DNA from: Escherichia phage vB_EcoM_005
Sequence record: MK295203
Length of the DNA stretch: 64,000 nt
Strand: one strand, 5' to 3'
The notes under the pieces were generated by a model. That model saw only the letters and a program-made list of their open reading frames with translations, made no database searches and had not been told where the DNA came from. Below are positions 2,847-63,219 of this stretch, in pieces; the first letter of the stretch is position 1, and each line of letters opens with the position of its first letter. The position numbers were made by a program, and so were the translations under genes.

Positions 2847-3563
2847 TTAAGAAATTCGTGATGCTGCGATTGCAGACAGGTCCGCGAAGGACAGGGTAGG
2901 CTTAGCGCCTTTTTCTTCAACTGCTTCTGAAATGTAATTCAGTGCCGCAGCATCGTCTACATTTTTATTTATAGCGGCTTCGGTGATTGGGTTTTCAACG
3001 TCAGTTTCAGTCAGGTCTTTAGTTGCTTCCGTAACAGCAACTTCACGCTGTACGTAATTAATATACGCGTCGCGCTTACCAACTTCTTCGAACAGACGAG
3101 CGGTTTCATCTTTCTGCTCTTGGAGTTCTTCTTCCATTTCAGCAACAACATCTACTGCTTCTTCTGGAACAACCACATTGTGTTCAACAAACAGTTCTTT
3201 CATACCCATCAACATGGATTCGAACAGTTCGGCTTTAATACCTTTATCAACAGCCAGCTGGTTTTCAGCCATCCATTCTTTAGCAACGTGGTCAAGGAAA
3301 CGACCGGCAGCTTCTTGGATTTTCTTATCGGCTTTTTCTTCAGCTTCTTCTTTATTTTTCTCTACTTCTTCTTCCGCTTTTTCAGCGATTTTAGCGATGT
3401 GAGATTCAGCCAGTTTCACGGCGTGTTGCTTGACGGTAGCTTCGAATACAGTGCCGAAAGTTTCTTTTGCTTCCGGAGAAATATTAACTGATTCGAAAAT
3501 ACTATCAAGAGCAACGGAAGCATCAATATTCTGTGCTTCGGCGATCAGTTGTTCTTTAAGCAT
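2847..3563 (-). CDS. 22: prohead scaffold protein gp22
   Basis: 238-aa acidic coiled-coil protein MLKEQLIAEAQ...; position between 21 and 23. Confidence 0.85.
   Translation of the reverse strand: MLKEQLIAEAQNIDASVALDSIFESVNISPEAKETFGTVFEATVKQHAVKLAESHIAKIAEKAEEEVEKNKEEAEEKADKKIQEAAGRFLDHVAKEWMAENQLAVDKGIKAELFESMLMGMKELFVEHNVVVPEEAVDVVAEMEEELQEQKDETARLFEEVGKRDAYINYVQREVAVTEATKDLTETDVENPITEAAINKNVDDAAALNYISEAVEEKGAKPTLSFADLSAIAASRIS
2966..2973 (-). promoter_or_regulatory. possible late promoter TATAAATA
   Basis: Forward TATTTATA = minus-strand TATAAATA, about 140 nt upstream of gene 23 start. Confidence 0.3.
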
Positions 3564-6557: not shown

Positions 6558-7139
6558 TCATTCATTTTCATGTTTGTGATAACGTGTTATAGCCGAACGA
6601 GTTGATTCAACACCACAGATAGGGCAAATCATCCTTGGCTGATTAATCTTTTTGCCTTTAGCCGGATGTTCTTTACCAAACATCGGATTACCTTCACCAG
6701 ACATAGCTTTGGCTTGGTCTGGTCGCTTACGTCCTTTTAGAGCTTTAGAATGTTCAGGCCTCTTTTTACCTAACCTACAATCTCTTTGTAGCTGTTTGGC
6801 ATGTTCACTCATTGGAATCCCTTTACGAGACATTCCAAAGAACCCGTCAGGCTGAGCTAATGACATATTTATATAGTTTTTAGATTTAACTACATTATAC
6901 TTTATTTGAAGCTCTTTCTCAGCTATACGAGCTTCTTTATCGGTTTCAAATAAAGATAAAATTCTGGTTTTGAAAAGGTGCGGATTTTCTTTACGTTCTA
7001 GATTCCAAATCTTTTTATATGCTTGGGATAATACAGAACCATTATATCCTTCTTTGAGAATCCTTTCAACGTATGTTGAGCCAATATAACGACGGGGTAG
7101 TTTAGACCCCGTGTATATGGTTAAGTAAGTACAATACAT
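6558..7139 (-). CDS. GIY-YIG homing endonuclease with C-terminal zinc finger
   Basis: TIYTGSKLPRRYIGSTY N-terminal motifs, repeated basic H-x-AK segments, C-terminal CPICG...H; free-standing between genes 20 and 19. Confidence 0.7.
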   Translation of the reverse strand: MYCTYLTIYTGSKLPRRYIGSTYVERILKEGYNGSVLSQAYKKIWNLERKENPHLFKTRILSLFETDKEARIAEKELQIKYNVVKSKNYINMSLAQPDGFFGMSRKGIPMSEHAKQLQRDCRLGKKRPEHSKALKGRKRPDQAKAMSGEGNPMFGKEHPAKGKKINQPRMICPICGVESTRSAITRYHKHENE

Positions 7140-7701: not shown

Positions 7702-8385
7702 TTAGTGTTTCCTATCATATTCTTCAATTAAATGGAATAGCATATCTAAATCTATACTATTTTTAGAATCTTTACTTCGATTCTTTTCCCAAGGAATCAT
7801 TTCTAGATTGCAAATGTGTCCTATTATTTCGGGAGGGACGCCATTTTCAAATCCATATTTGATAGATACCCTATGGTCTAATTGATAAGCTCCTTTAACA
7901 CCACATATCCCGCTTAGATGTCTATTTGGTAGATTATCAACTTCTTCTTTAAAAGTCTTATTAGTAAAAGACCTCACTGAATAATAATATTTATTACGTT
8001 CAGATTTGTTAGGATTCCATCTTCCGTTTTTAGGTCCTGAACAAGCTTCAATCTTTATACCTTTTTTAGACTTAGAAATTTTAGGCCCTTTGGTTTTACG
8101 GATTTTTATGCCTTCATCAGAATTCCAATATTCTTTTCTTGTTTCTGAATAGACTTCCCAACGATGCTCTTTACAGAACTTAGAATTGGTTTCATTAAGT
8201 CGCCCTTTTGTTACAGTATAATAAATGCCACATTTATCACATTTACACGTAACAGCCATTTTTCCAGGACAGTCTTCTAATTTTATTAAATGGGAGCTTC
8301 CACTTTTAACTTGATATCCAAGATTTTTAAAAGCAGAAACATTGCGATTCGTTATAGGTATTTCAAATAGAGTATTAGTAATCAT
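7702..8385 (-). CDS. HNH homing endonuclease (mob-like)
   Basis: C-terminal YQLDHRVSIKYGFENG...HICNLEMIPWEKNRSKD HNH motif, cysteine-rich N-terminus; inserted between genes 19 and 18. Confidence 0.7.
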   Translation of the reverse strand: MITNTLFEIPITNRNVSAFKNLGYQVKSGSSHLIKLEDCPGKMAVTCKCDKCGIYYTVTKGRLNETNSKFCKEHRWEVYSETRKEYWNSDEGIKIRKTKGPKISKSKKGIKIEACSGPKNGRWNPNKSERNKYYYSVRSFTNKTFKEEVDNLPNRHLSGICGVKGAYQLDHRVSIKYGFENGVPPEIIGHICNLEMIPWEKNRSKDSKNSIDLDMLFHLIEEYDRKH

Positions 8386-10431: not shown

Positions 10432-12741
<2,310 letters not shown>

Positions 12742-12745
<4 letters not shown>

Positions 12746-13608
12746 GGGTTTCTCCTTGGTGCTGGAGGCGCTGGCTCGACAGGCACTGGAATATCTTGTG
12801 AATATGTTTGAACGGAACTTCCATCCCATTCTGTTTGTTCTACACCTCTCGGAACCACTTCGCTATCAACCGATTCGAAATTACCTTCAGGAGCGAGTTC
12901 CTTTGAGTTAGCAAAGAAATCAAGATAAATGGTTTTAATTTCGCCTTCCATTTCTTTAACTGGAGGATATAACCACCCGTTAACCTCAAACATCATGGAC
13001 CATTCTAAACGACGACGAGAAGTGGTATCGCCTTCTAATTGTTCGTCCATTGCAATAGACTGGAACACAATACGAATATCACGGTCAAATTTAATCTCGT
13101 TTGTATAGAGTTCAGTGATTGTTGTATTAAAGTGAGGTTGGAAATAAGGCATAATCTGTTCCACAATTTGGAACATATCATCTTGGGTTCTAGTGTAAAT
13201 ACCCAGTTCGAAAATCATTTTAACCGGAGTAGGAGAATATTGGCTAACCCGTTTACGAGGGTCACCATTCTCAAATTGAATTTGTGTTCTGTTCTGAAGA
13301 GCTGTTTTGTATTGTGAGTTATAAAGCATATCAACCATTTGAAGGTTCATACGTGGAAGAACTGTTTCCACTTTAGCCTTTTGTTCAGCTCGTTCTTTAG
13401 GAGACGTATTGGGATTTGGAATATTCTGTACTGCCGTCCATTTGCCCAAATTTGCCATAAATCTTTCTTTAGAAGCATACGTGATAGGAACCTTAATAAA
13501 TTTAAGCCCTGTATCTTCTCTTTGACGTGCTACTTGAACATGGGAAAATAAATCACCCATCAAAACAATATAGCGACGTAGCGAACTATTATAAAAGTGA
13601 CCGAACAT
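12742..13608 (-). CDS. 15: tail sheath stabilizer/terminator protein gp15
   Basis: [13 protein letters not shown]...VPITYASKE... matches T4 gp15 N-terminus as recalled; 288 aa. Confidence 0.85.
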
Positions 13609-14195
13609 TACTCACCTCTCATTTTACAATTATCATTATGCCAACGATTTATAAGATGGTATCCTATCATCTTGTGGCAATGTGGACACTCTACTTTTCT
13701 CTTTGGTACACCTGTTTGGGCTTGTCCAAAGGATACGGTATGTTCTGCTGAAAGCTTTTTGCCTTTGTGGGTTTCACTGGCTCTCTTTTTAGCATACTCT
13801 CCGTGATGTTTACCAAAAAATGGATTCAATTCACCTATACGAGTTTTACCCCAGGCTGATTTAACCCTCTTCATTTCTATACGGGCTTCTTCGTATTTTA
13901 TTTTTAATTCTTCTTCGGATAAATTTAAATTTCTACGTTCAGAACTACTAAACATAATCCAAAAGGCTAAAATCATTTTAGGGTCTTTTGTTTTTGCTAA
14001 GATTGCATGCGCCTCTAGATGGTCTAAAACATCTATAGAAACTATATTTTCCGGCGTGTTTTCGTATTCTGGAAATAAAGACCTAGGGAGAATATGATGT
14101 TTTTCGGTGTATTCTGTTTTAGGTGGCTTGGAGACCACCGCCAGATATTCATCTGTCAAATCCCCAAGCCATAATCCTACTTTTTCTTCTATCAT
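13608..14195 (-). CDS. HNH homing endonuclease
   Basis: HHILPRSLFPEYENTPENIVSIDVLDHLEAH HNH motif and C-terminal CPHCH...C zinc finger; inserted between genes 15 and 14. Confidence 0.7.
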   Translation of the reverse strand: MIEEKVGLWLGDLTDEYLAVVSKPPKTEYTEKHHILPRSLFPEYENTPENIVSIDVLDHLEAHAILAKTKDPKMILAFWIMFSSSERRNLNLSEEELKIKYEEARIEMKRVKSAWGKTRIGELNPFFGKHHGEYAKKRASETHKGKKLSAEHTVSFGQAQTGVPKRKVECPHCHKMIGYHLINRWHNDNCKMRGE

Positions 14196-14204
14196 AGAAG
14201 TTAT

Positions 14205-14908
14205 TTAATCATCTAAAAAAGCATCATCAAATGCTGTAGGAGGAGCATCTTCTCCTCGTCCATTAATTACAACATAAGGATGTACGAATTCAGCCGCTTC
14301 GGCATTAATCTCATTGACCTCTTCGTATTGAATGTCGGAGATATCAGCCAACCCGTCGATATTCTTAACAGGCATTAAATCAAGCTCACTGAATTCAGGA
14401 ATATTAATACCTTCATTTCTCTGTAATTCAGGACGAAGTTCTTCACCATTGTAAATGAACTTGGTAGCGGTAATTCGACGCTGGACGTTAGCACCTACTT
14501 GATAGAATGGGTCGTAAGGTTGTACCCAGTTAATTTCGAATAGGCTTATTATCCATTGGGAAATAAATCAAGTCGCCTGAAACAGGTTCAGTGCCATTGC
14601 ATTGATGTTTAAAAAGGTTAGGGTTAATTGTGATTGTTACTTCATCATTAACCATCATACCGAACTTACTGAAAGCCTATTCGGTCATTGGCATTTAACA
14701 TATTCACGTGGTATATAATAAAGCTCAATACCACGCATTTGAATAGACTCAGCAACTAAAGCATCAGCCAATGTTTGGGTATTCTCATGCTTGTAATGGT
14801 CGCCATTGGGTCATTGACAAAGGGATTGAGAATTTCGGCTTCGTTCGTATTAGCGTAACCTGTATTATTTTCTAGTTTGGCGAAAAGACTAGAATCAAAT
14901 GTCGACAT
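14205..14908 (-). CDS. 14: neck protein gp14 (multiple frameshifts; not translatable as one ORF)
   Basis: gp14-like segments lie in three frames: [23 protein letters not shown]..., [64 protein letters not shown]...; span of 704 nt is not a multiple of 3. Confidence 0.7.
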
Positions 14909-15521
14909 AACTCCACTCCTTCCATTTAGGTTTATCATTCTTTATTCTATTAATAACTGCGCTTTTGACTATACCAAAATACTCGGCGCATTCTTTACCT
15001 GTCGAGAATACCATTTCTCCGACTCTAACTGCTCTGGCCGCAGGATTTTTACTACCGGTAAAATCTGGGTGTTTCACACGCGTCCACATTAATGCGGTAG
15101 ATTCTTTTCTACGCTTTAGCCCTTCTTCAGTCCATTCTCTTGATTTTGCCGCCTCTGACATTCTTTTTCTTGATTCTATAGAACGGGTTTTACCTATATT
15201 AGGGTTATCTTTAGGATTGTAATAAGAAGGACCACCTTGTCCTCCTTTTACCAAATTAACACACTGAGCAAAATCTTCTTTAAGAATATCGACTAAAAGT
15301 TCTTCGGCTTCCTTTAATAATTCCGGATTACCGAAATCTTTCGACCATAATACCTGTTTTATACAGTTTCGTCCATATTTTTTCTTAGCATTCGAAATAT
15401 ACGTTCCTGAGCCAACGTATGAATCCAGCTTTGGATTAGATTTATCCGAATGTCTTTTACCGCCATAAATTTTTAATCCGTCCGACGTTTCAAACTCAGT
15501 CACGTATAATCTATAAAACAT
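14895..15521 (-). CDS. GIY-YIG homing endonuclease inserted between genes 13 and 14
   Basis: [10 protein letters not shown]...YVGSG motifs, C-terminal HTH; 3' end overlaps gene 14 start; ORF track fuses it to an upstream gene-14 fragment (14895..15668). Confidence 0.75.
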
Positions 15522-15568
15522 AATTATCCAATTAAAATAGGTGTTGGTGGGTCGAGTAAATCTAATTC
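15519..15568. repeat. 50-bp direct repeat, copy 1 (copy of gene 13 3' end)
   Basis: Identical 50-mer CATAATTATCCAATTAAAATAGGTGTTGGTGGGTCGAGTAAATCTAATTC also at 15666-15715. Confidence 0.85.
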
Positions 15569-15572
15569 GAAA

Positions 15573-15668
15573 GTTGACGAAAGGGTTCATTATTTCAGTT
15601 TCGTTCGTGTTAGCATAGCCAGTATTATCTTCTAGCTTAGCGAATAAACTCGAATCGAAAGTAGCCAT
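15573..15668 (-). other. duplicated, diverged 5' fragment of gene 14 (32 codons)
   Basis: [32 protein letters not shown], about 78% nt identical to the real gene 14 start at 14908; reads in frame into the HEG. Confidence 0.6.
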
Positions 15669-15715
15669 AATTATCCAATTAAAATAGGTGTTGGTGGGTC
15701 GAGTAAATCTAATTC
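15666..15715. repeat. 50-bp direct repeat, copy 2 (3' end of gene 13)
   Basis: Identical to 15519-15568; encodes gp13 C-terminus ...[14 protein letters not shown]. Confidence 0.85.
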
Positions 15716-16839
15716 CTCGCGAAGTCGTTCTTTTTCTAAACGAGCTTCTTCAATCAATCGAATAGCCATCTACAGTGGTTCCACCTGCAAGTTGCATGCC
15801 TTGGTGTTTGGCTAAAATATTACCATTGACCTCTTTAACCAGTGCCGTAGCATAATCTTTAACCCAACGGTTATTATATGCACCAGTCTTGAAGACCAAG
15901 GTCCTCACCTACACGCATACCAGAAATACGACGTGATGGATTATCCCAAACAGCTCCAGGGCTCCATTCATTTTCGTCACACCCACCAGAGGCATATCCA
16001 TATCCTGCAGTATTTCCTACCATAGAATCAACCCCATTAAAAGAGCGAGTATAAACTTCAATTACAATAAAATCACCTTTAACAAAGTTACCCATTACCT
16101 TCAACTGTTCAGTGGCATCGTTATACCAATAATCAGGCAACAAAATATTACCATTGACTTCTTTAACCAATGCCGTCGCATAATCTTTGACCCAACGGTT
16201 ATTATATGAACCATCTTGCAAACCAAGGTCTTCACCTGCCCTCATACCTGAAATACGACGAGCCGGGTTATCCCAAATAGCTCCGGGGCTCCATTCATTT
16301 TCGTCACACCCACCAGAGGCATATCCATATCCTGCAGTATTTCCTACCATAGAATCAACCCCATTAAAAGTGGAACCAAAAGGTCTTGCATCATAGAACG
16401 ATATTGCATTAATTGTGTAAAATAACCAAGGTCGGCACCGAAGGCATTAGGCCCAAAGCTGTTACAAGAAGGTTCCAAGACCACCATTAATACCGGCCAA
16501 GCCTAATACAAAATCAGTAAACCATGGATAAGTCGCTTGGCCATCCATAGATGTTAAAGAACCCACGTTGGTTCTCAAAATTTGTGTTACCGCAAATATA
16601 TTACGGCCTTTAAGGTCAAATACACCGTTACGGAATTTTTCTTCGTCATCATGGCCTATATAAAAAGCCTGATAACCTTTGTTATAGCCGTTATAATGAT
16701 ACTCACCGTAGAGCTCCAGTGCGCGCTGGATGCAATCGTATACTTGGTCTGTAGTTACTTCAATATTTGTAATCGGTGCACCCAGGCGGCGCAGGATTGC
16801 GTCCTTGAGTTGCTTAGGGTTATATGATTCACTTGCCAT
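15671..16839 (-). CDS. 13: neck protein gp13 (frameshifts and internal tandem duplication)
   Basis: [23 protein letters not shown]... matches T4 gp13; frame breaks near 16465 and 15760; 1169-nt span is not a multiple of 3. Confidence 0.75.
15814..16043. repeat. tandem duplication inside gene 13, copy A (about 230 bp)
   Basis: About 90% identical to 16142-16370; both encode [43 protein letters not shown]. Confidence 0.8.
16142..16370. repeat. tandem duplication inside gene 13, copy B
   Basis: See copy A; separated from it by a 98-bp unique segment encoding [19 protein letters not shown]... Confidence 0.8.
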
Positions 16840-16893: not shown

Positions 16894-19107
16894 TTATGGT
16901 GTTGGGGTTAAAGTCACAAAATCTGACAATAATACCCATGCATTATCAACAAGAACATACGGAAGTCCATCAGCAACTGGAGCCGCTGGCGGACGTTTAC
17001 CAAGTTCAGTTTCTAGTGCAGTGATTTTAGCTTCGGCTGCAGTTAAACGAGTAGTTAATCCTGCCACTTTACCTGATTCAACTTCAACAACACCTAAACG
17101 GGTATCAATAGCCGCTACTTTATCGGATTCACCCTTAACTTCAGCCAATCCAGATTTAAGTGTTACTATATCACCTTCTGCAGTGCCAAGGCGGGTATTA
17201 ATACCTGCTACCTTATCAGATTCGACTTTAACAGCGGCAAGTCCTGTTTCTAAAGTGGTGATTTTACCTTCTGCTGTAGTAACTCTAGTTGTTAAAGGAG
17301 CAATTTTGGCAGTATCAACTTTAATTGCGTTAATTTCACCTTCAGTAGAAGAAACTCGGCCAGTTAAAGAAACGATATCGCCTTTGTTCTTGGTGATATC
17401 CGCTTTAATAGGGGTCAACTGGTTTTCTAAATCGGTTACATCTAAAGCCAGTGCAGTAACATCGTCATCAGTAGTATCTGTCTTAGTTTCAAGAGCAGCA
17501 ATTTTACCGTTAATGGTTACATCACTAGATTCAAGTGCTGTTAAACGACCGTCCTGTTCAACGTCTTTAGCCTTTATAGTAACGATATCTGCTTTAATCT
17601 CACCAACCGAAGTGTTTAATGCACCGGTACGAGTATCAAGAGAAGAAATTGAGGTATCATTATCATCGACTCTAGAAGTTAAAGCGGCCACTTTACCGTT
17701 GGTAACAACCAAATCAGCCTTAACAGATTCTATTTCCGTAGAGCTATTGAGAACCTCTGTCCAAGTAGCATTGCGGCGTGCATAAAGCTTACCATCGGAA
17801 GGGGCATCATTCAACTTACCTAACATCTGGGTTTCTAAAGAAGTAACCGCGTTAATAAGACCACGTTCTTCTACAGTAGTACCGTTAGGGTTGGTCCCGT
17901 CAACCTTATTGGTGAGTTTAAGTAAAGTACCCTTAATACCGGATTGGTTATTTCCAATTTCTACTTGAATATCCTGGATAGATGAAGTAGATTGGTTTGC
18001 TTGGATAATAACGTCATTTAAACGCTTATTAATGGTCCCAGCTGCCGGAGATACTTCACTACCTAAACGGCGGTTGATATCAGTAACTTGGAAACGTAAG
18101 CCATCACTTGAACTAACACCCACTATGGTTTTAAGGTCATTTACATCGGTGCGAAGACCGCTTAAACGTCCATTAATAGAAGTAGGAGTTGATTCAGAAC
18201 CTATTTGGATTTCAATTGATGTTACACGAGGTTTTAAATCAACGTTGACTGAATTTTCTAGGGTAAGAGTTTTGCTTTCTAAAGTAGTTACTCGGTCCTT
18301 TATAGGCATACCGGAGAAATCAATATTGGTCTTAATTTCGTCGATAGACGTATTAAAATTAATTGCCGCCGTTTCTAATGCTGAAATTCGGGTATAAGCA
18401 GGTTGTTTACCTACCGTATCAGAATGCGGGCCAAGTTCAGCACGAATTTCATTTAATTTAATACCTAATTGCCCGACGTCAGAATCTTCATAATTCCTTT
18501 CAAGGGTATCAATGCGAAGACGATGGTCGACCAATTCAGTGGTATTATCAATGATGCGACGTTTCATACCGGTGGCTTCGCTGGTTTCACCTGGAGGCAA
18601 TGGATTGCCATTTATATCCTGGTTTTCATAATGACCTATTTCGGTTTTAAGAAGAACAATATTTTCACGTACAGTTAAATATGGGCCATCTTGTAAAGGG
18701 TCATGGTAACCAACGTCTTCACGCAAGTAATCAAAATTGGTGGTTAACTCATCCAATTTTCCTGTTGTTTCTGAAGTAACCTTTTTAAGGTCTACGATAT
18801 CAACACGGTTTTTCTCAATTTGTTGGATGACGGAAATATCCGTAGCCATTTCTAAGGCATCATTGATATTATTAACGTTTTCTACCAGTTCGTTAACTTT
18901 ATCTGCGGTTTTCAAATCATTCGCATCAAGAGCTTCAACGTTTTTCTGAACTCCTAAAGCAGCAGCGTTCAAATTACCTTCATTGCCGTATTTTGTTTTT
19001 GCTGCAGACATACAATCACCCTCGCGTATCCATTGGATACGCTTTTGAGGAGCATCAGGTACGCCGTCAACAAATGGTAACTCACTAAGTTCCAATTTGT
19101 TAATCAT
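16894..19107 (-). CDS. wac: fibritin (whisker antigen control) with extended coiled coil
   Basis: MINKLELSELPFVDGVPDAPQ... N-terminus like T4 wac, long repetitive coiled-coil segments; 737 aa versus 487 in T4 as recalled. Confidence 0.85.
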   Translation of the reverse strand: MINKLELSELPFVDGVPDAPQKRIQWIREGDCMSAAKTKYGNEGNLNAAALGVQKNVEALDANDLKTADKVNELVENVNNINDALEMATDISVIQQIEKNRVDIVDLKKVTSETTGKLDELTTNFDYLREDVGYHDPLQDGPYLTVRENIVLLKTEIGHYENQDINGNPLPPGETSEATGMKRRIIDNTTELVDHRLRIDTLERNYEDSDVGQLGIKLNEIRAELGPHSDTVGKQPAYTRISALETAAINFNTSIDEIKTNIDFSGMPIKDRVTTLESKTLTLENSVNVDLKPRVTSIEIQIGSESTPTSINGRLSGLRTDVNDLKTIVGVSSSDGLRFQVTDINRRLGSEVSPAAGTINKRLNDVIIQANQSTSSIQDIQVEIGNNQSGIKGTLLKLTNKVDGTNPNGTTVEERGLINAVTSLETQMLGKLNDAPSDGKLYARRNATWTEVLNSSTEIESVKADLVVTNGKVAALTSRVDDNDTSISSLDTRTGALNTSVGEIKADIVTIKAKDVEQDGRLTALESSDVTINGKIAALETKTDTTDDDVTALALDVTDLENQLTPIKADITKNKGDIVSLTGRVSSTEGEINAIKVDTAKIAPLTTRVTTAEGKITTLETGLAAVKVESDKVAGINTRLGTAEGDIVTLKSGLAEVKGESDKVAAIDTRLGVVEVESGKVAGLTTRLTAAEAKITALETELGKRPPAAPVADGLPYVLVDNAWVLLSDFVTLTPTP

Positions 19108-24445: not shown

Positions 24446-24503
24446 TAATTTTTACCTGAGGGGCAAAGGTCACAGCACTTTGGTCAAACAAAATGCGCAT
24501 AGA

Positions 24504-27170
24504 CTAATCGGCAGGAATATCAAACGGTTCTCCTGCTTTAGGTCCAACGTTGTACATTGGAGCACCTGTACGAGGGTCTCGTTCTATATTACCATCAAAA
24601 CCTATTACAGCAACTCTATCATACCATTCAGATGGCAAACCTGAGTCCCATTTATAGTTCTTAAGGATATTAATAATAGTTTCTGTATGTTTTAGCGTTA
24701 AACCAACGTTAACAAACATAGAAAGCAAAGTTATACCTACAAAGCCGAAACCTACTGGATGAACAAATCTCAAAACATCTTTGCGATAACGAGAGGTAGG
24801 GAGATTAGACTTAATAGTCATCACATAATAAGAACGGTTACGGTTGATATAGTCGATATTGTTACTCAAAAGCTCTTTACCACGTACACCCTGAACAATC
24901 ATACCCTTGAACGAAGTACGTTCAGATTTAATTTCCTGTCCGACTATAAAACGACCTAAAAGGTTATGAATGGTTAAACGCCATTGCAGTTTACCATCTT
25001 TGTAATTTCGTTCTATATAAGTAACATTACTACGACCCGTAGGAGTATAAATCGTTTGGCCTACGATATCTTCACTGATATTGTCGGATTCTACGATGAT
25101 ATCATATTCGATAGAGTTCTTGGACTCGATATCAATTTCGACATCTTCGTTGTAAAGCAATTTAAACAGGAACTTATAAGAAGCTTCGGTACCTTTTGTA
25201 GACCAAAAATCGCTTTGGCGTGCCTGGAAAAAACGAACAACTTCATCGCGTTTTTCCTTTGACAAATAGATATTACGCTTATAGATTTCCGACCACAAAT
25301 ATTCCCATGAATCTTCTTCACGCGGATATTGGTTACGAATAAGATTCAACAAATTATTATAGTGCGTACCTGAGCCATCACTAATAAATTGGAGATAGTA
25401 TTCACAGAATTTTTCAAAGTTGGTATCTTGAAGCAAATAACTATCTGGAATCATTTTAACCAGTAAAGGTTGGAGGTCTGGGTCCTGCTCACCAACTTCC
25501 TCTTTAGGCTTCCATGGGATTTCATGTTCTTGGTTTTGCAATTCTGCCGTAAACATAATTTCTTTAGGCTTCCAAATAACACGGACTTCATCACGCACAC
25601 GATAGTCAAATTCAAAATATCCAACCAATTCACCCGTAGATTTGTGAATCATCATTCCGGAAGAATATTTCTTAAAGCCGTTAAATTCTATATTAGGAGA
25701 CGTGACTTTACAAAAACCTTTATTCCAAATCTCGTGAACAATACGTTCAGGTGAAGAACCACTGTTCAGGTCGATAATTTTCTGATATAAAGCATCATTA
25801 TAAACAACCATCGCATGGTCGCCGGTAGTAATCCATGAACGGGTTCCATCACGACGGGACCAACTAAAGAATGGTTCGGCATAATAAGCCATACGTCCAG
25901 GTTTAAATTCTTTGAAATCAGATTTAGAGTTAGACCTAAAACTCATCATCAAATAATGTTTATCATGAATCCATTGTTCATCTTTAACATATTTAACGGC
26001 TGAAGTGACAATTTCAGGATATTCCAAAGGAAGTTCAGAATCAACCTCTACTTCATATCTAAAGTTGCTCGAACTGAAAAATAATTCCTCTCCATCGGTA
26101 GACATGCTGGTATATCCATGCTCTATACGACGACGTTCTTCTTCAGTGTTTCCAAATACACGAGTCCATGTATCGGCTGAAGTGTCTAACCAATAAACAC
26201 CTTTAGATTCGGAATCAACCACATTGGATTCGACTGTAGGGTCCATTTTTTCTTCTTTAACTTCACCTGTAATTAAAGCAAATGTATGGCCTTGGATAGA
26301 ATCTAATTTATAACAAACAGCTTTAGGGTTCCCTGTGATAGTTGAATATCCGCTTTCAAATATCTTCTCTCCATAAGTCGGAGAACTAGGGTCGGTGTCT
26401 ATAGGGGCTTCAGATGTTTTTGCTTTATAAACTCTGTCTCTACCAGCAACATAAATGAATTCATCAGATGCGCACATGGCCTCGGCAATAGTAGAAATAG
26501 GTAAAGGAAGCTTTGCATATGAACCAAATATTTCGATTTCAAATGGAAGGTCGATATCGCTACCTATTTTAGCAAAAGTTACATCCTGGGAACTAAATCT
26601 AACGTCATCAGCAGACCAACGAATATCACTTGATTTACGTCCGTAAAATATTTGGTCATAACCTAGAACATAAGTGGTCGTGTCGGTTTGGTAATGTACC
26701 GTACGTGAAACAGGGTTACCTACTCGGTCATTAAACAAACGGATATAATGCCAGTTCTGCCCTTTATCATTAGAAACCTTAGCGGTGCTTTGGAATCTTT
26801 CTAAAAGGTAAAGTACACCGCCAAGTTCCATTAAAATAGAACGTTTAGGGTCTTTACAAACTGCTTGGATGCTTCCTTGGATTTCATGGAAACGGTCTGC
26901 TTTTAAAACATAATTTGATATAGATGACAAATGCGAATATGCAGGGGTAAAGTTAAAATCTTCACTCATCAAAGAAGCCATAATGGCGTCAGTATTAAAG
27001 TTCACATAATTCTGATTATTTTTTGTGAATTTTTCTTCAATAAATTTATTAGACAAAGTGAATTCGCGCATATGCTCAAATGTATATGCGTTGGTAGAGA
27101 AAGTTTCAAATTCTTCAGTGTAAACCCATTCAGACTGCTCAAACCCCTGGGCAGCTACCGCAACTCTCAT
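24504..27170 (-). CDS. 7: baseplate wedge protein gp7 (start missing, C-terminus frameshifted)
   Basis: Longest ATG-initiated ORF; gp7 homology continues upstream to about 27284 (...LGYTPNNEWF...) with no start codon; C-terminal ...FAPQVKIND lies in another frame at 24443-24500. Confidence 0.85.
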   Translation of the reverse strand: MRVAVAAQGFEQSEWVYTEEFETFSTNAYTFEHMREFTLSNKFIEEKFTKNNQNYVNFNTDAIMASLMSEDFNFTPAYSHLSSISNYVLKADRFHEIQGSIQAVCKDPKRSILMELGGVLYLLERFQSTAKVSNDKGQNWHYIRLFNDRVGNPVSRTVHYQTDTTTYVLGYDQIFYGRKSSDIRWSADDVRFSSQDVTFAKIGSDIDLPFEIEIFGSYAKLPLPISTIAEAMCASDEFIYVAGRDRVYKAKTSEAPIDTDPSSPTYGEKIFESGYSTITGNPKAVCYKLDSIQGHTFALITGEVKEEKMDPTVESNVVDSESKGVYWLDTSADTWTRVFGNTEEERRRIEHGYTSMSTDGEELFFSSSNFRYEVEVDSELPLEYPEIVTSAVKYVKDEQWIHDKHYLMMSFRSNSKSDFKEFKPGRMAYYAEPFFSWSRRDGTRSWITTGDHAMVVYNDALYQKIIDLNSGSSPERIVHEIWNKGFCKVTSPNIEFNGFKKYSSGMMIHKSTGELVGYFEFDYRVRDEVRVIWKPKEIMFTAELQNQEHEIPWKPKEEVGEQDPDLQPLLVKMIPDSYLLQDTNFEKFCEYYLQFISDGSGTHYNNLLNLIRNQYPREEDSWEYLWSEIYKRNIYLSKEKRDEVVRFFQARQSDFWSTKGTEASYKFLFKLLYNEDVEIDIESKNSIEYDIIVESDNISEDIVGQTIYTPTGRSNVTYIERNYKDGKLQWRLTIHNLLGRFIVGQEIKSERTSFKGMIVQGVRGKELLSNNIDYINRNRSYYVMTIKSNLPTSRYRKDVLRFVHPVGFGFVGITLLSMFVNVGLTLKHTETIINILKNYKWDSGLPSEWYDRVAVIGFDGNIERDPRTGAPMYNVGPKAGEPFDIPAD

Positions 27171-41128: not shown

Positions 41129-41410
41129 ATGATGAATGATTACCGTAAAAATAAAGAACTGGCTGAAGCAGTAAATGATATCCATAAAGCTATTCGTCGT
41201 GCTGAGGAAATTGCAAACAAATATGAGACTCATTTTAATATATACCCTGCTCGCGGTATGGGCGGTGACTATTATTCTCCTGGCGCCTTGAAAGCCGACC
41301 TTGCCCACTGGGAAGAATACGGTGAAGCTCAGTATGCTATTGTAAACCAACATGATTACACTACCAGCCTAGAAAATGGTGGATGGGTGTCCTCTTCTTC
41401 TGAATGTTAA
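41129..41410 (+). CDS. small acidic protein, WxSS..C-terminus family, member B
   Basis: Ends GGWVSSSSEC; TAAGGA coupling. Confidence 0.6.
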   Translation: MMNDYRKNKELAEAVNDIHKAIRRAEEIANKYETHFNIYPARGMGGDYYSPGALKADLAHWEEYGEAQYAIVNQHDYTTSLENGGWVSSSSEC

Positions 41411-41419
41411 GGAATTATT

Positions 41420-41617
41420 ATGTCTCGTGAACTAGATTGTGCAATCCGTACTGCAGCCGCAGCTATTGAAAACGTTATCCAGATTTGTAAAGAAGAACGC
41501 GAAGAAGCTGATATCTATATCGATGGCGCTCGTGACCTAGAACGACATATCACGCTTTATAACGGTTGTATTACTATTAGTGGTACTTCCTGGGTATCAT
41601 CCTCTTACGAATGCTAA
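41420..41617 (+). CDS. small acidic protein, WxSS..C-terminus family, member C
   Basis: Ends TSWVSSSYEC; TAAGGA coupling. Confidence 0.6.
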   Translation: MSRELDCAIRTAAAAIENVIQICKEEREEADIYIDGARDLERHITLYNGCITISGTSWVSSSYEC

Positions 41618-41626
41618 GGAAATAAA

Positions 41627-41836
41627 ATGACTATTGATGAAATTGAAAAACAAATCCGCGAATTAGTACGTAAAGGCCAGTCCGTGGCTGACGAAACAGG
41701 TCAGCACTTCCACGCTGGAGGCGAAGAATATATTCCAGCTTCTAGTCCGGAATATGATGATTACGAATGGGCCCGTGATGATTACGGTATCCCAGATGGT
41801 GAAGGTTTCTGGTTTACATCCTCTATGTCTTGCTAA
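41627..41836 (+). CDS. small acidic protein, WxSS..C-terminus family, member D
   Basis: Ends GFWFTSSMSC; TAAGG coupling. Confidence 0.6.
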   Translation: MTIDEIEKQIRELVRKGQSVADETGQHFHAGGEEYIPASSPEYDDYEWARDDYGIPDGEGFWFTSSMSC

Positions 41837-42954: not shown

Positions 42955-43818
42955 ATGATGTTAGTTATTGGTTCTCGTGCACTGCACCACGCTGGTCTGA
43001 TTGAAAGTAAGCATATCGAAAATTCTGATTGGGATTTCATTGCCGACCAAGGTTCATGGAACCATTTTAAAGCTCGGATGTTTGGTGCCCATGTTTCTGT
43101 GGATAATCCTGATGTCCAGGCTTTTAAATGCATGTACAACGGTAAAGAAACCTATTTTGAAGCATATATCGTTCGTGCTCTGACTAACGTACGAGAAATT
43201 ACCGGCGAGCTTCAAGACGAAGATTTCACCTCAAGTTATCGTCTCCTGAAATATGCCGAAAATCATATTAAAAAGGACCGTCTTACAGGTTTCTATTGGG
43301 CTACGCCTGATATCTGTCTGGCTATCAAAACCTCTCATCGTTTCCTGAAGAATAATCCTTTCTTCTTGAAAACTATGTCCCACATCAAATACCTTCGTAA
43401 TAAAGGTACCACCTTGAATGAAGAACTCCAGGAAATTATGCTGCAACGTCAAAAAGAAACGTTGAGCTATTCCCATCCTAAATTGGATGTAAACAAATCA
43501 TCGTTCTTTAATGATACCATGGAGAAGTTCGAGGCTTTGCCTGAAGCTATTAAATTGGCTGGTGTGTATGAAGAAACCTGTGTCCTGGCACTAGAACGTT
43601 CACAGGTTCCTAATGACTTCAATATTTCACCATCATTAAGTTTCTATATGGCTCTTGAGAAAGTGTGTACCTCAATCACTTCAGGTTGGTTCCGCACTTA
43701 TGCATGGGAAAACTACCAAGCTGTGGTTAATATGTACAAGACTTTAGGTGAAAGTGACTACATTGAACGATTTAAACGTAATCAACATCTTATTAAACCT
43801 TTCAAAAAGGCTGAGTAA
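42955..43818 (+). CDS. hypothetical protein (287 aa), possible nucleotidyltransferase-like N-terminus
   Basis: Internal ATGATG start after GAGGAAAA; N-terminal LVIGSRALHH...SDWDF loosely resembles a GS...DxD motif. Confidence 0.5.
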   Translation: MMLVIGSRALHHAGLIESKHIENSDWDFIADQGSWNHFKARMFGAHVSVDNPDVQAFKCMYNGKETYFEAYIVRALTNVREITGELQDEDFTSSYRLLKYAENHIKKDRLTGFYWATPDICLAIKTSHRFLKNNPFFLKTMSHIKYLRNKGTTLNEELQEIMLQRQKETLSYSHPKLDVNKSSFFNDTMEKFEALPEAIKLAGVYEETCVLALERSQVPNDFNISPSLSFYMALEKVCTSITSGWFRTYAWENYQAVVNMYKTLGESDYIERFKRNQHLIKPFKKAE

Positions 43819-44468
43819 TGGGACGGCCTCTAAAAGATTTAACCGGACAGGTTATAAATGGTATTAAATTTTTATCGGTGGCCTATAAAGCCACCGGATC
43901 GCCAACCAAGTGGCTTTTATTGTGCCATTGCGGTGAAGAATTCGTTACCACCGCCTCTAGAATAAAAACAGGAAAAACAAAATCATGCGGCTGTGAAAGA
44001 TACCATTATTCCTTTATAAAGAATAGGTATACATATTCCTCATATTCTGCTATGATTGCTAGATGTACAGACCCTAAACATAAAGCCTATCCCGCCTACG
44101 GTGGTAATGGTATAGTTGTTTGTGACGAGTGGCTTCCTAAAGGAAAGAAAGGGTATTTAAAATTTGTCGAGGATATGGGCGAGAGACCTAAAGGGACTTC
44201 AATAAATCGAATAGGTTCTGTTAAAAGGTATAGCAAAGAAACTTGTGAGTGGGCTCCATTTACAATGCAATCATTTGACCAAAGAACGCGTCATGATTCA
44301 CCGGGTCCTATTTCAGGAGTTGTATATAGAAAAGATAGAAATAAATGGGTAGCTTCTATAACAGTAGAAGGCGAAGCCATAGGGCTATATTATGGTGATA
44401 CTGAAAGCGAAGCGATAGAGGCTAGAAAACAAGCTGAACTTAAATATTTTGGAAGATTTAAGTCATAA
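43818..44468 (+). CDS. AP2-domain DNA-binding protein (homing-endonuclease-like)
   Basis: C-terminal ...GVVYRKDRNKWVASITVEGEAIGLYYGDTESEAIEARKQAELKYFG AP2-type motif; Cys-rich N-terminus. Confidence 0.55.
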   Translation: MGRPLKDLTGQVINGIKFLSVAYKATGSPTKWLLLCHCGEEFVTTASRIKTGKTKSCGCERYHYSFIKNRYTYSSYSAMIARCTDPKHKAYPAYGGNGIVVCDEWLPKGKKGYLKFVEDMGERPKGTSINRIGSVKRYSKETCEWAPFTMQSFDQRTRHDSPGPISGVVYRKDRNKWVASITVEGEAIGLYYGDTESEAIEARKQAELKYFGRFKS

Positions 44469-53574: not shown

Positions 53575-53760
53575 ATGGTGTGGCTTACTAAAAGAGAGAT
53601 AGAGGTTGTAGCAGCGACGTATAATGCTAATAATAAAGAGTGTCCTAATAAAAATGGGATGGATTTAATTAAAGCGCATTATATGCTTTCCATTACCTCG
53701 CCTATACAGAGGAATTGGGTTGAATATAATTTTAACGACGTGTTCTATTCTTATTTGTAG
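53575..53760 (+). CDS. hypothetical small protein (61 aa)
   Basis: ATG within ORF 53554..53760 (TTG start in track); overlaps a 30-codon hydrophobic ORF at 53499..53591. Confidence 0.3.
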   Translation: MVWLTKREIEVVAATYNANNKECPNKNGMDLIKAHYMLSITSPIQRNWVEYNFNDVFYSYL

Positions 53761-63042: not shown

Positions 63043-63219
63043 ATGAAAACTAAATTAGTCTATACCGAAAAGTTGGATGGCAGTAAGGTCTGGAAACTTC
63101 TTATCAAAGGAAGTCCTACCGACCAGTTTATGGCCACCTGTGTAGGATTGTATACTCGCCCTACCAAAAAGATGATTCGTCAATTTAAACGGTTGCATCG
63201 TTCGTTCTATAATGTTTAA
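63043..63219 (+). CDS. hypothetical basic protein (58 aa)
   Basis: TGATG overlap with upstream frame. Confidence 0.4.
   Translation: MKTKLVYTEKLDGSKVWKLLIKGSPTDQFMATCVGLYTRPTKKMIRQFKRLHRSFYNV

Follow-up and report, generated by a model that had tools for sequence, protein, structure and literature searches.

Fragmentation of neck gene 14 in Escherichia phage vB_EcoM_005 probably reflects damage to the sequence record

Gene order and the pieces of gene 14

The window, by which we mean the whole stretch of 64,000 nucleotides analyzed here from the record of Escherichia phage vB_EcoM_005 (MK295203), covers the cluster of late structural genes in a T4-like phage (genus Dhakavirus), with MX01, KIT01, ABTNLsp5, and IME540 as its best matches (identity approximately 96%). 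Its minus strand carries gene 17 (10435-12270), gene 16 (between genes 17 and 15), gene 15 (12742-13608), gene 14 (14205-14908), the neck-protein gene 13 (15671-16839), and wac (16894-19107). Two endonuclease genes on the same strand adjoin gene 14: an intact gene for a mob-like HNH homing endonuclease on the gene 15 side (13608-14195; assigned from the KIT01 annotation and PHROG 655, E 7e-39), and a seg-like gene at 14895-15521. The order 17-16-15-(mob)-14-(seg)-13-wac is the same as in KIT01 and MX01, and gene 14 thus lies between genes 13 and 15. The mob-like protein is found in identical form on two Logan contigs, and in Logan DRR827169 the same two endonuclease genes flank gene 14. Several neighboring products, including gp20, gp17, gp16, and gp15, are free of lesions, with proteins 99.6-100% identical to those of MX01 and a nucleotide identity of approximately 97%.

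Some features of the window have the appearance of natural variation. Fibritin, encoded by wac (16894-19107, minus strand), is 737 aa long, compared with 720 aa in MX01 (approximately 90% identical) and 529 aa in KIT01; the difference looks like natural variation in coiled-coil length, and no record of the exact 737-aa protein was found. With MX01 as the reference, inserted genes are unusually numerous in the structural module (680-1339 on the plus strand; 6558-7139, 7702-8385, 13608-14195, and 14895-15521 on the minus strand; and 43808-44464). Endonucleases account for four of them, three seg-like (PHROG 314) and one mob-like HNH (PHROG 655); the other two are an ORF of unknown function (PHROG 5104) and an insertion of approximately 655 nt. 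All those examined are intact.

Three-frame translation of the minus strand from 14203 to 14910 resolves gp14 (14205-14908) into four fragments in three frames, separated by three lesions that were defined by alignment with KIT01, ABTNLsp5, MX01, and one Logan contig. A first-pass annotation had recognized gp14 split across three frames, and both the translation and the Pfam matches bear this out: every fragment matches PF11649 (T4_neck-protein), with E values from 1e-4 to 2e-32. Fragment 1 (14814-14908; PF11649 7-35) comprises codons 1-32 of an allele that we call B, running from MSTFDSS to NPFVN in frame 14908 from an ATG at 14908, and is identical to the 5′ ends of gp14 in MX01 and L008. 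Fragment 2 (14695-14795; PF11649 37-71) extends from YKHENTQ to PREYVK in frame 14909 and has no start codon of its own. Fragment 3 (14548-14674; PF11649 106-148) ends at FPMDN in frame 14910, while fragment 4 (14205-14545; PF11649 148-257) returns to frame 14909 and runs from SLFEINW to AFLDD and the stop codon. All four lie on the minus strand. No single ORF of 256-257 codons or thereabouts spans the whole PF11649 profile in the window, and profile positions 72-105 are absent from it altogether. The intact gp14 of KIT01 matches PDB 9mkb, the solved gp14 of T4, with an E value of 5e-121.

Lesion 1 (14796-14813, minus strand) is an 18-nt filler, TGACCCAATGGCGACCAT on the coding strand, that stands in place of the native CTTC for a net gain of 14 nt, and the indel is present against MX01 as well as KIT01. 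The break had previously been read as a 1-bp loss at AGCATGAG; that reading is wrong, since MX01, ABTNLsp5, and L008 all have AGCATGAG natively, and what had been misread is the 18-for-4 replacement, which lies 10 nt upstream of AGCATGAG. Lesion 2 (14675-14694, minus strand) replaces 105 nt, approximately codons 68-102, with a 20-nt filler (net −85 nt). The event is the same against all relatives, and it accounts for the loss of coding sequence that had been suspected between PREYV and FSKFG. Lesion 3 (14546-14547, minus-strand gene) is one extra base, T on the plus strand and A on the coding strand, giving GGATAATAAGCCTATTCG in the window vs. GGACAAC-AGCCTATTCG in the relatives. The 1-bp gain already proposed here was therefore correct, the extra T at 14546/7 being absent from the relatives.

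The first-pass annotation had also drawn attention to the motif CTATTCG at two breaks in gene 14 and one in gene 13. Copies do occur at these places (14537-43, 14677-83, and 15759-65). The window as a whole has six copies vs. 7.45 expected, fewer than chance would provide. The copy at lesion 3 is native and the gene 13 copy consists of a native TATTCG plus an inserted base, so that two of the three are wholly or largely native. The fillers themselves, when sought as copies of other sequence, gave only short matches of 10 nt at most. Filler 2 has a 10-nt inverted match to the lesion-3 site, a likeness reached by 1.5% of random 20-mers and suggestive at most; it also shares GGTCATTGRCA with the lesion-1 junction as a direct near-copy, which adds only little.

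Comparison with intact gp14 genes, as had been recommended for a gene expected to span about 250 codons, returned an uninterrupted 257-codon ORF in all ten natural relatives (MX01, KIT01, ABTNLsp5, two Logan contigs, and five IMG/VR Dhakaviruses), and all ten show the same lesion events relative to the window. Outside the lesions, comparison with KIT01 shows 33 codons with synonymous differences and four with real non-synonymous ones; of the four, one is also found in ABTNLsp5 and three fall within the cassette-derived 5′ end described below. Since the changes are almost all synonymous, gp14 was under purifying selection until the lesions appeared. To judge from its codons, the gene passed through no phase of neutral decay and is not a slowly decaying pseudogene. 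The lesion-2 junction was absent from viral, metagenome, and genome contigs when these were scanned for its exact pattern. Additionally, megablast searches against phages, E. coli genomes, and plasmids, together with look-ups of the exact wac and gp15 proteins, returned nothing above approximately 96-97% identity, and none of the matches carried any of the lesions.

The seg-like endonuclease cassette and gene 13

Upstream of gene 14 lies an intact, free-standing seg-like homing endonuclease gene of the GIY-YIG family (14895-15521, minus strand; PHROG 314, E 9e-33), whose 208-aa protein is 100% identical to MX01 ORF161 and has its natural start at 15521. The protein scores 20.8 for NUMOD3 (cutoff 20.4) and 24.1 for the I-TevI DNA-binding domain, the latter below its cutoff of 27; the domains of such an enzyme are thus present in an unbroken ORF. 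The cassette is found in MX01 and L008 and is absent from KIT01, ABTNLsp5, and L009-L014. This presence or absence goes along with a diverged flank: the first 98 nt of gp14 are approximately 80% identical between the endonuclease-plus and endonuclease-minus classes, vs. 97% downstream.

In the window this arrangement is complicated by duplications. The block 14695-15568 takes in the allele B 5′ end of gp14, the endonuclease gene, and the final 50 nt of gene 13, and it matches MX01 at 99.9% identity, compared with 93-97% for its flanks. These 50 nt form its upstream edge (15519-15568, minus strand) and repeat the end of gene 13, with a 100% self-match to 15666-15715. Beyond it lies an orphan copy of the 5′ end of gp14 (15571-15668, minus strand), codons 1-33 of the allele carried by endonuclease-less phages, here called copy A. 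Copy A runs directly on into a gene 13 with no more than approximately 93-95% identity to any known phage; exact-pattern scans of viral and metagenome contigs found no occurrence of the junction between copy A and gene 13. Within gp14, copy A breaks off at the very nucleotide (approximately nt 95-99) at which lesion 1 interrupts copy B, and this is also the point where the two allele classes cease diverging. A fusion ORF of 257 aa (14895-15668, minus strand) results, in which the start and 98 nt of gp14 from copy A, a 2-nt junction, and the 50-nt duplicate are in frame with the endonuclease.

Gene 13 is broken more heavily than gene 14. It has gained a G at each of 15765, 15886, and 16472, and a 230-nt block of a second, MX01-like allele (16141-16370) stands in series with the gene's own copy (15814-16043), to which it is 92% identical. 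A deletion of 97/98 nt follows at 16370/71. Internal duplications of this kind were found in the window only in the region of genes 13 and 14, and the duplicated blocks in the two genes represent different natural alleles, 8% and approximately 20% divergent, respectively. Because different alleles are duplicated, copy-paste corruption of one genome cannot have produced them, and either a mixed sample or real recombination is needed.

A separate repeat lies far from these genes, where a 42-nt stretch of the reference is doubled at approximately 41384-41425 and 41591-41632, some 165 nt apart; it is possibly a natural small insertion.

Deletions and insertions across the window

When the whole window was chained against MX01 and KIT01 and its deletions listed, gene 14 proved to be one damaged gene among many. 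Approximately 40 lesions are specific to the window, the three of gene 14 among them, and approximately 28 of these are clean deletions that are absent from the relatives. In 20 of the approximately 28, exactly 100 nt have been exchanged for one base, a net loss of 99 nt (junctions near 3005, 19203, 19467, 21018, 23300, 23985, 27472, 31005, 31231, 45143, 47050, 51928, 54139, 55753, 55870, 56614, 59013, 60542, 61884, and 62453). These leave in-frame holes of 33 residues in gp22, gp12 (twice), gp10, gp9, gp8, gp6, and gp5 (twice), as well as in ORFs of the lysozyme region, vs, NrdC, and others. The remaining deletions range from 98 to 174 nt (98, 107, 124, 134, 148, 167, and 174), and larger deletions in the same style were noted at window positions 1527, 9414, 20591, 27277, 30243, and 62896, the last being the 167-nt deletion. 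A 134-for-1 deletion near the 3′ end of gp23 frameshifts the C-terminus of the major capsid protein, a 107-for-1 deletion frameshifts gp11, a 148-for-1 deletion falls within gp18, a 124-nt deletion falls within gp5, and a 174-nt deletion takes out the end of gp6 together with the start of gp7. Parts have thus been lost from gp23, gp22, gp18, gp12 (twice), gp11, gp10, gp9, gp8, gp7, gp6, and gp5 (three times). The approximately 28 also include a gap of 300 nt at 63045, where one whole small gene is missing; it looks like a natural gene absence.

Wherever the base left at the junction mismatches the reference, it is G or T on the plus strand (approximately 17 of 17 cases), irrespective of gene strand, the genes concerned being on the minus strand from 1 to 31 kb and on the plus strand from 45 to 63 kb. 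Single-base insertions specific to the window in conserved coding sequence follow the same rule, all being G or T on the plus strand (T at 14546, G at 15765, 15886, and 16472, and T at 53589 and 53754). Deletion starts fall in codon phases 0, 1, and 2, a mixture at odds with designed, codon-aware deletions of 33 codons.

The types of lesion seen in gp14 recur elsewhere: an extra T occurs at 53589 and again at 53754, and at 24491-24510 a filler of approximately 19 nt stands in for a long stretch. The two insertions, both specific to the window, break a small conserved ORF, the homologue of MX01 ORF98, into two frames. At the 3′ end of gp7, near the boundary with gp8 (24461-24510), a 70-for-1 deletion (junction base G) is followed by 30 native nucleotides and then by the replacement of approximately 76 nt with a 19-nt filler, the ends of which resemble mutated ends of the deleted stretch.

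Several sources of such a pattern were considered. The deleted 100-nt blocks were not found relocated within the window, no N-masks able to mimic deletions were found at the reference loci, and positions taken modulo 99, 100, 128, and 512 gave no periodicity of the kind expected from periodic or line-based dropping of text. A mirror class of clean 100-nt insertions was also sought, and its candidate sites were natural variable regions. Lesions are not evenly spread: genes 13 and 14 hold nine in 2.6 kb vs. approximately 0.5 per kb elsewhere, an excess of approximately sevenfold (Poisson estimate approximately 1e-5), and outside that region gapless alignment runs for up to 4.2 kb.

Origin of the lesions and comparison with known systems

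The regular size of the deletions, a base bias that follows the strand of the text, and the indifference of the lesions to both codon phase and gene essentiality, in a genome that otherwise bears a clean mark of selection, indicate that the lesions are non-biological. In our judgment, what has destroyed gene 14, otherwise an ordinary neck-protein gene of the T4 type, is probably (at a rough probability of 0.8) damage to the sequence record, an artefact rather than biology. We infer that a lesion signature of this kind cannot arise in a replicating phage and, for that reason, that the underlying phage has an intact 257-codon gp14. The damage could stem from processing, from in-silico corruption, or from faulty assembly or consensus-building of a mixed Dhakavirus population. 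Assembly of a mixed population would place both alleles one after the other and set the breakpoints at the borders of the divergent stretch.

Some observations sit uneasily with an artefact. The excess of lesions in genes 13 and 14 is not predicted by uniform corruption. Moreover, the coincidence of lesion 1 with the end of copy A is what a real double-strand-break repair product would show, and the resemblance of filler 2 to both the lesion-3 site (10 nt, inverted) and the lesion-1 junction (GGTCATTGRCA) points the same way.

These observations would be accommodated by a real but dead or defective molecule, an origin that we regard as unlikely. During mixed infection with an MX01-like phage, the seg-like endonuclease of that phage would have cleaved gp14 of an endonuclease-less Dhakavirus near nt 95-99. 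On the homologous side, repair would have copied gp14 (allele B), the endonuclease gene, and 50 nt of gene 13; illegitimate joining on the other side would have followed, and the outcome would be the orphan copy A, a duplicate of 50 nt, and lesion 1 as a junction scar, with lesions 2 and 3 as further template-switch scars of the same event. The near-identity of the cassette 14695-15568 to MX01 between less similar flanks (99.9% vs. 93-97%) fits this account, as does the ending of copy A at the very gp14 nucleotide that carries lesion 1 in copy B. The two matches of filler 2 could likewise be read as template-switch scars, although their significance is weak (p approximately 0.015) and it is at the illegitimate junction, rather than on the homologous side, that one would look for a filler. 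T4 provides precedents: documented homing events include one-sided ones joined illegitimately at microhomologies, and free-standing endonucleases cut at a distance from their own genes (PMC2988022). However, a homing event in gene 14 leaves unexplained the approximately 28 fixed-size deletions elsewhere and their G or T junction base on the plus strand. The product would also be non-viable, with gp13, gp14, gp23, gp11, and many others damaged, and could therefore not be the consensus of a propagating phage.

For the endonuclease-flanking duplication taken by itself, two readings fit, namely the mixed assembly of endonuclease-plus and endonuclease-minus sequences and a one-sided illegitimate homing product, and neither rescues gene 14. 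That the orphan codons 1-33 and the 50-nt duplicate are a genuine footprint of one-sided illegitimate homing beneath artefactual damage seems doubtful to us. If they were, both breaks at gp14 nt 95-99 would mark a putative cleavage site of the endonuclease in gene 14, and the locus would offer a natural Dhakavirus example of illegitimate repair in intronless homing. This duplication is the only possible biological content of the lesions.

It is very improbable that the assembly is otherwise sound and that ordinary base-calling or homopolymer errors, the latter envisaged by the first-pass annotation, account for the lesions. Lesion 3 and the three G insertions in gene 13 are single-base insertions such as base-calling might produce, but none of the insertions lengthens a homopolymer run of three or more, and none of the three lesions in gene 14 changes homopolymer length. 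Two of those lesions are multi-base replacements (18-for-4 and 20-for-105), and the 4.2 kb of gapless alignment elsewhere means that the rate of indel errors is not generally raised.

Gene 14 is neither a functional split gene nor a recoded one. T4 gene 60 is a precedent for translational bypassing in this group of phages. For separate polypeptides that assemble, the precedent is nrdA of phage Aeh1, reported to be split by mobE into “genes in pieces” (PMC3045599). That the window's gp14 works by programmed frameshifting or bypassing, or as assembling pieces in the manner of Aeh1 nrdA, can hardly be entertained: the interrupted arrangement occurs in none of the ten relatives; inspection of the coding sequence at the three breaks found neither slippery heptamers nor take-off and landing codons that match; 35 conserved residues (PF11649 72-105), present in the T4 gp14 structure 9mkb, are lost through lesion 2; fragments 2 and 4 begin without a start codon nearby; and no endonuclease gene separates the pieces, the seg-like gene lying upstream of fragment 1. 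Lack of conservation, lost residues, missing starts, and the placement of the endonuclease together rule out both recoding and genes in pieces.

Damage to the record, the reading that we favor, has practical consequences. For quality control, any oddity at gene level in the window, such as its truncated capsid, sheath, and baseplate proteins and its split neck genes, should be taken as sequence damage; annotation pipelines would otherwise label the lesions pseudogenes or “split genes.”

The gp14 of T4 (PF11649; PDB 9mkb and 9lu4), as it occurs in the Dhakaviruses MX01, KIT01, and ABTNLsp5, occupies the same place as the window's gene, and the parts that are kept are 96-98% identical at the nucleotide level. 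Unlike T4-type gp14, the window's gene has three lesions, has lost residues ~68-102, and is spread over three frames, a condition seen in no relative. MX01 and Logan DRR827169, with the order gene 13, seg-like endonuclease, gene 14, share with the window the same endonuclease (100% at the amino-acid level), the same site, and the same allele B 5′ end of gp14. The window differs from both in its extra orphan allele A 5′ end of gp14, its second copy of the 50 nt from gene 13, and an 18-nt filler where the cassette ends downstream. Assemblies of heterogeneous samples can contain false (haplotypic) duplications and junction errors. The window resembles such duplications in having two alleles in series with breakpoints where the alleles cease diverging, whereas exact 100-nt-for-1 deletions with a G or T junction base are not predicted by them. 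The nrdA-a/nrdA-b genes of Aeh1, as reported, are alike in that an essential T4-like gene is fragmented beside a homing endonuclease gene; there, however, the endonuclease gene lies between two complete, translatable halves, while in the window it lies upstream of the whole gene, the pieces are without starts, and sequence is missing (PMC3045599). One-sided illegitimate double-strand-break repair in T4 shares with the window a partial duplication of the target beside a mobile cassette and a junction with little or no homology. In T4 the products of illegitimate homing are viable, selected recombinants (PMC2988022), whereas in the window the target gene no longer reads in frame and there is damage in the rest of the genome as well.
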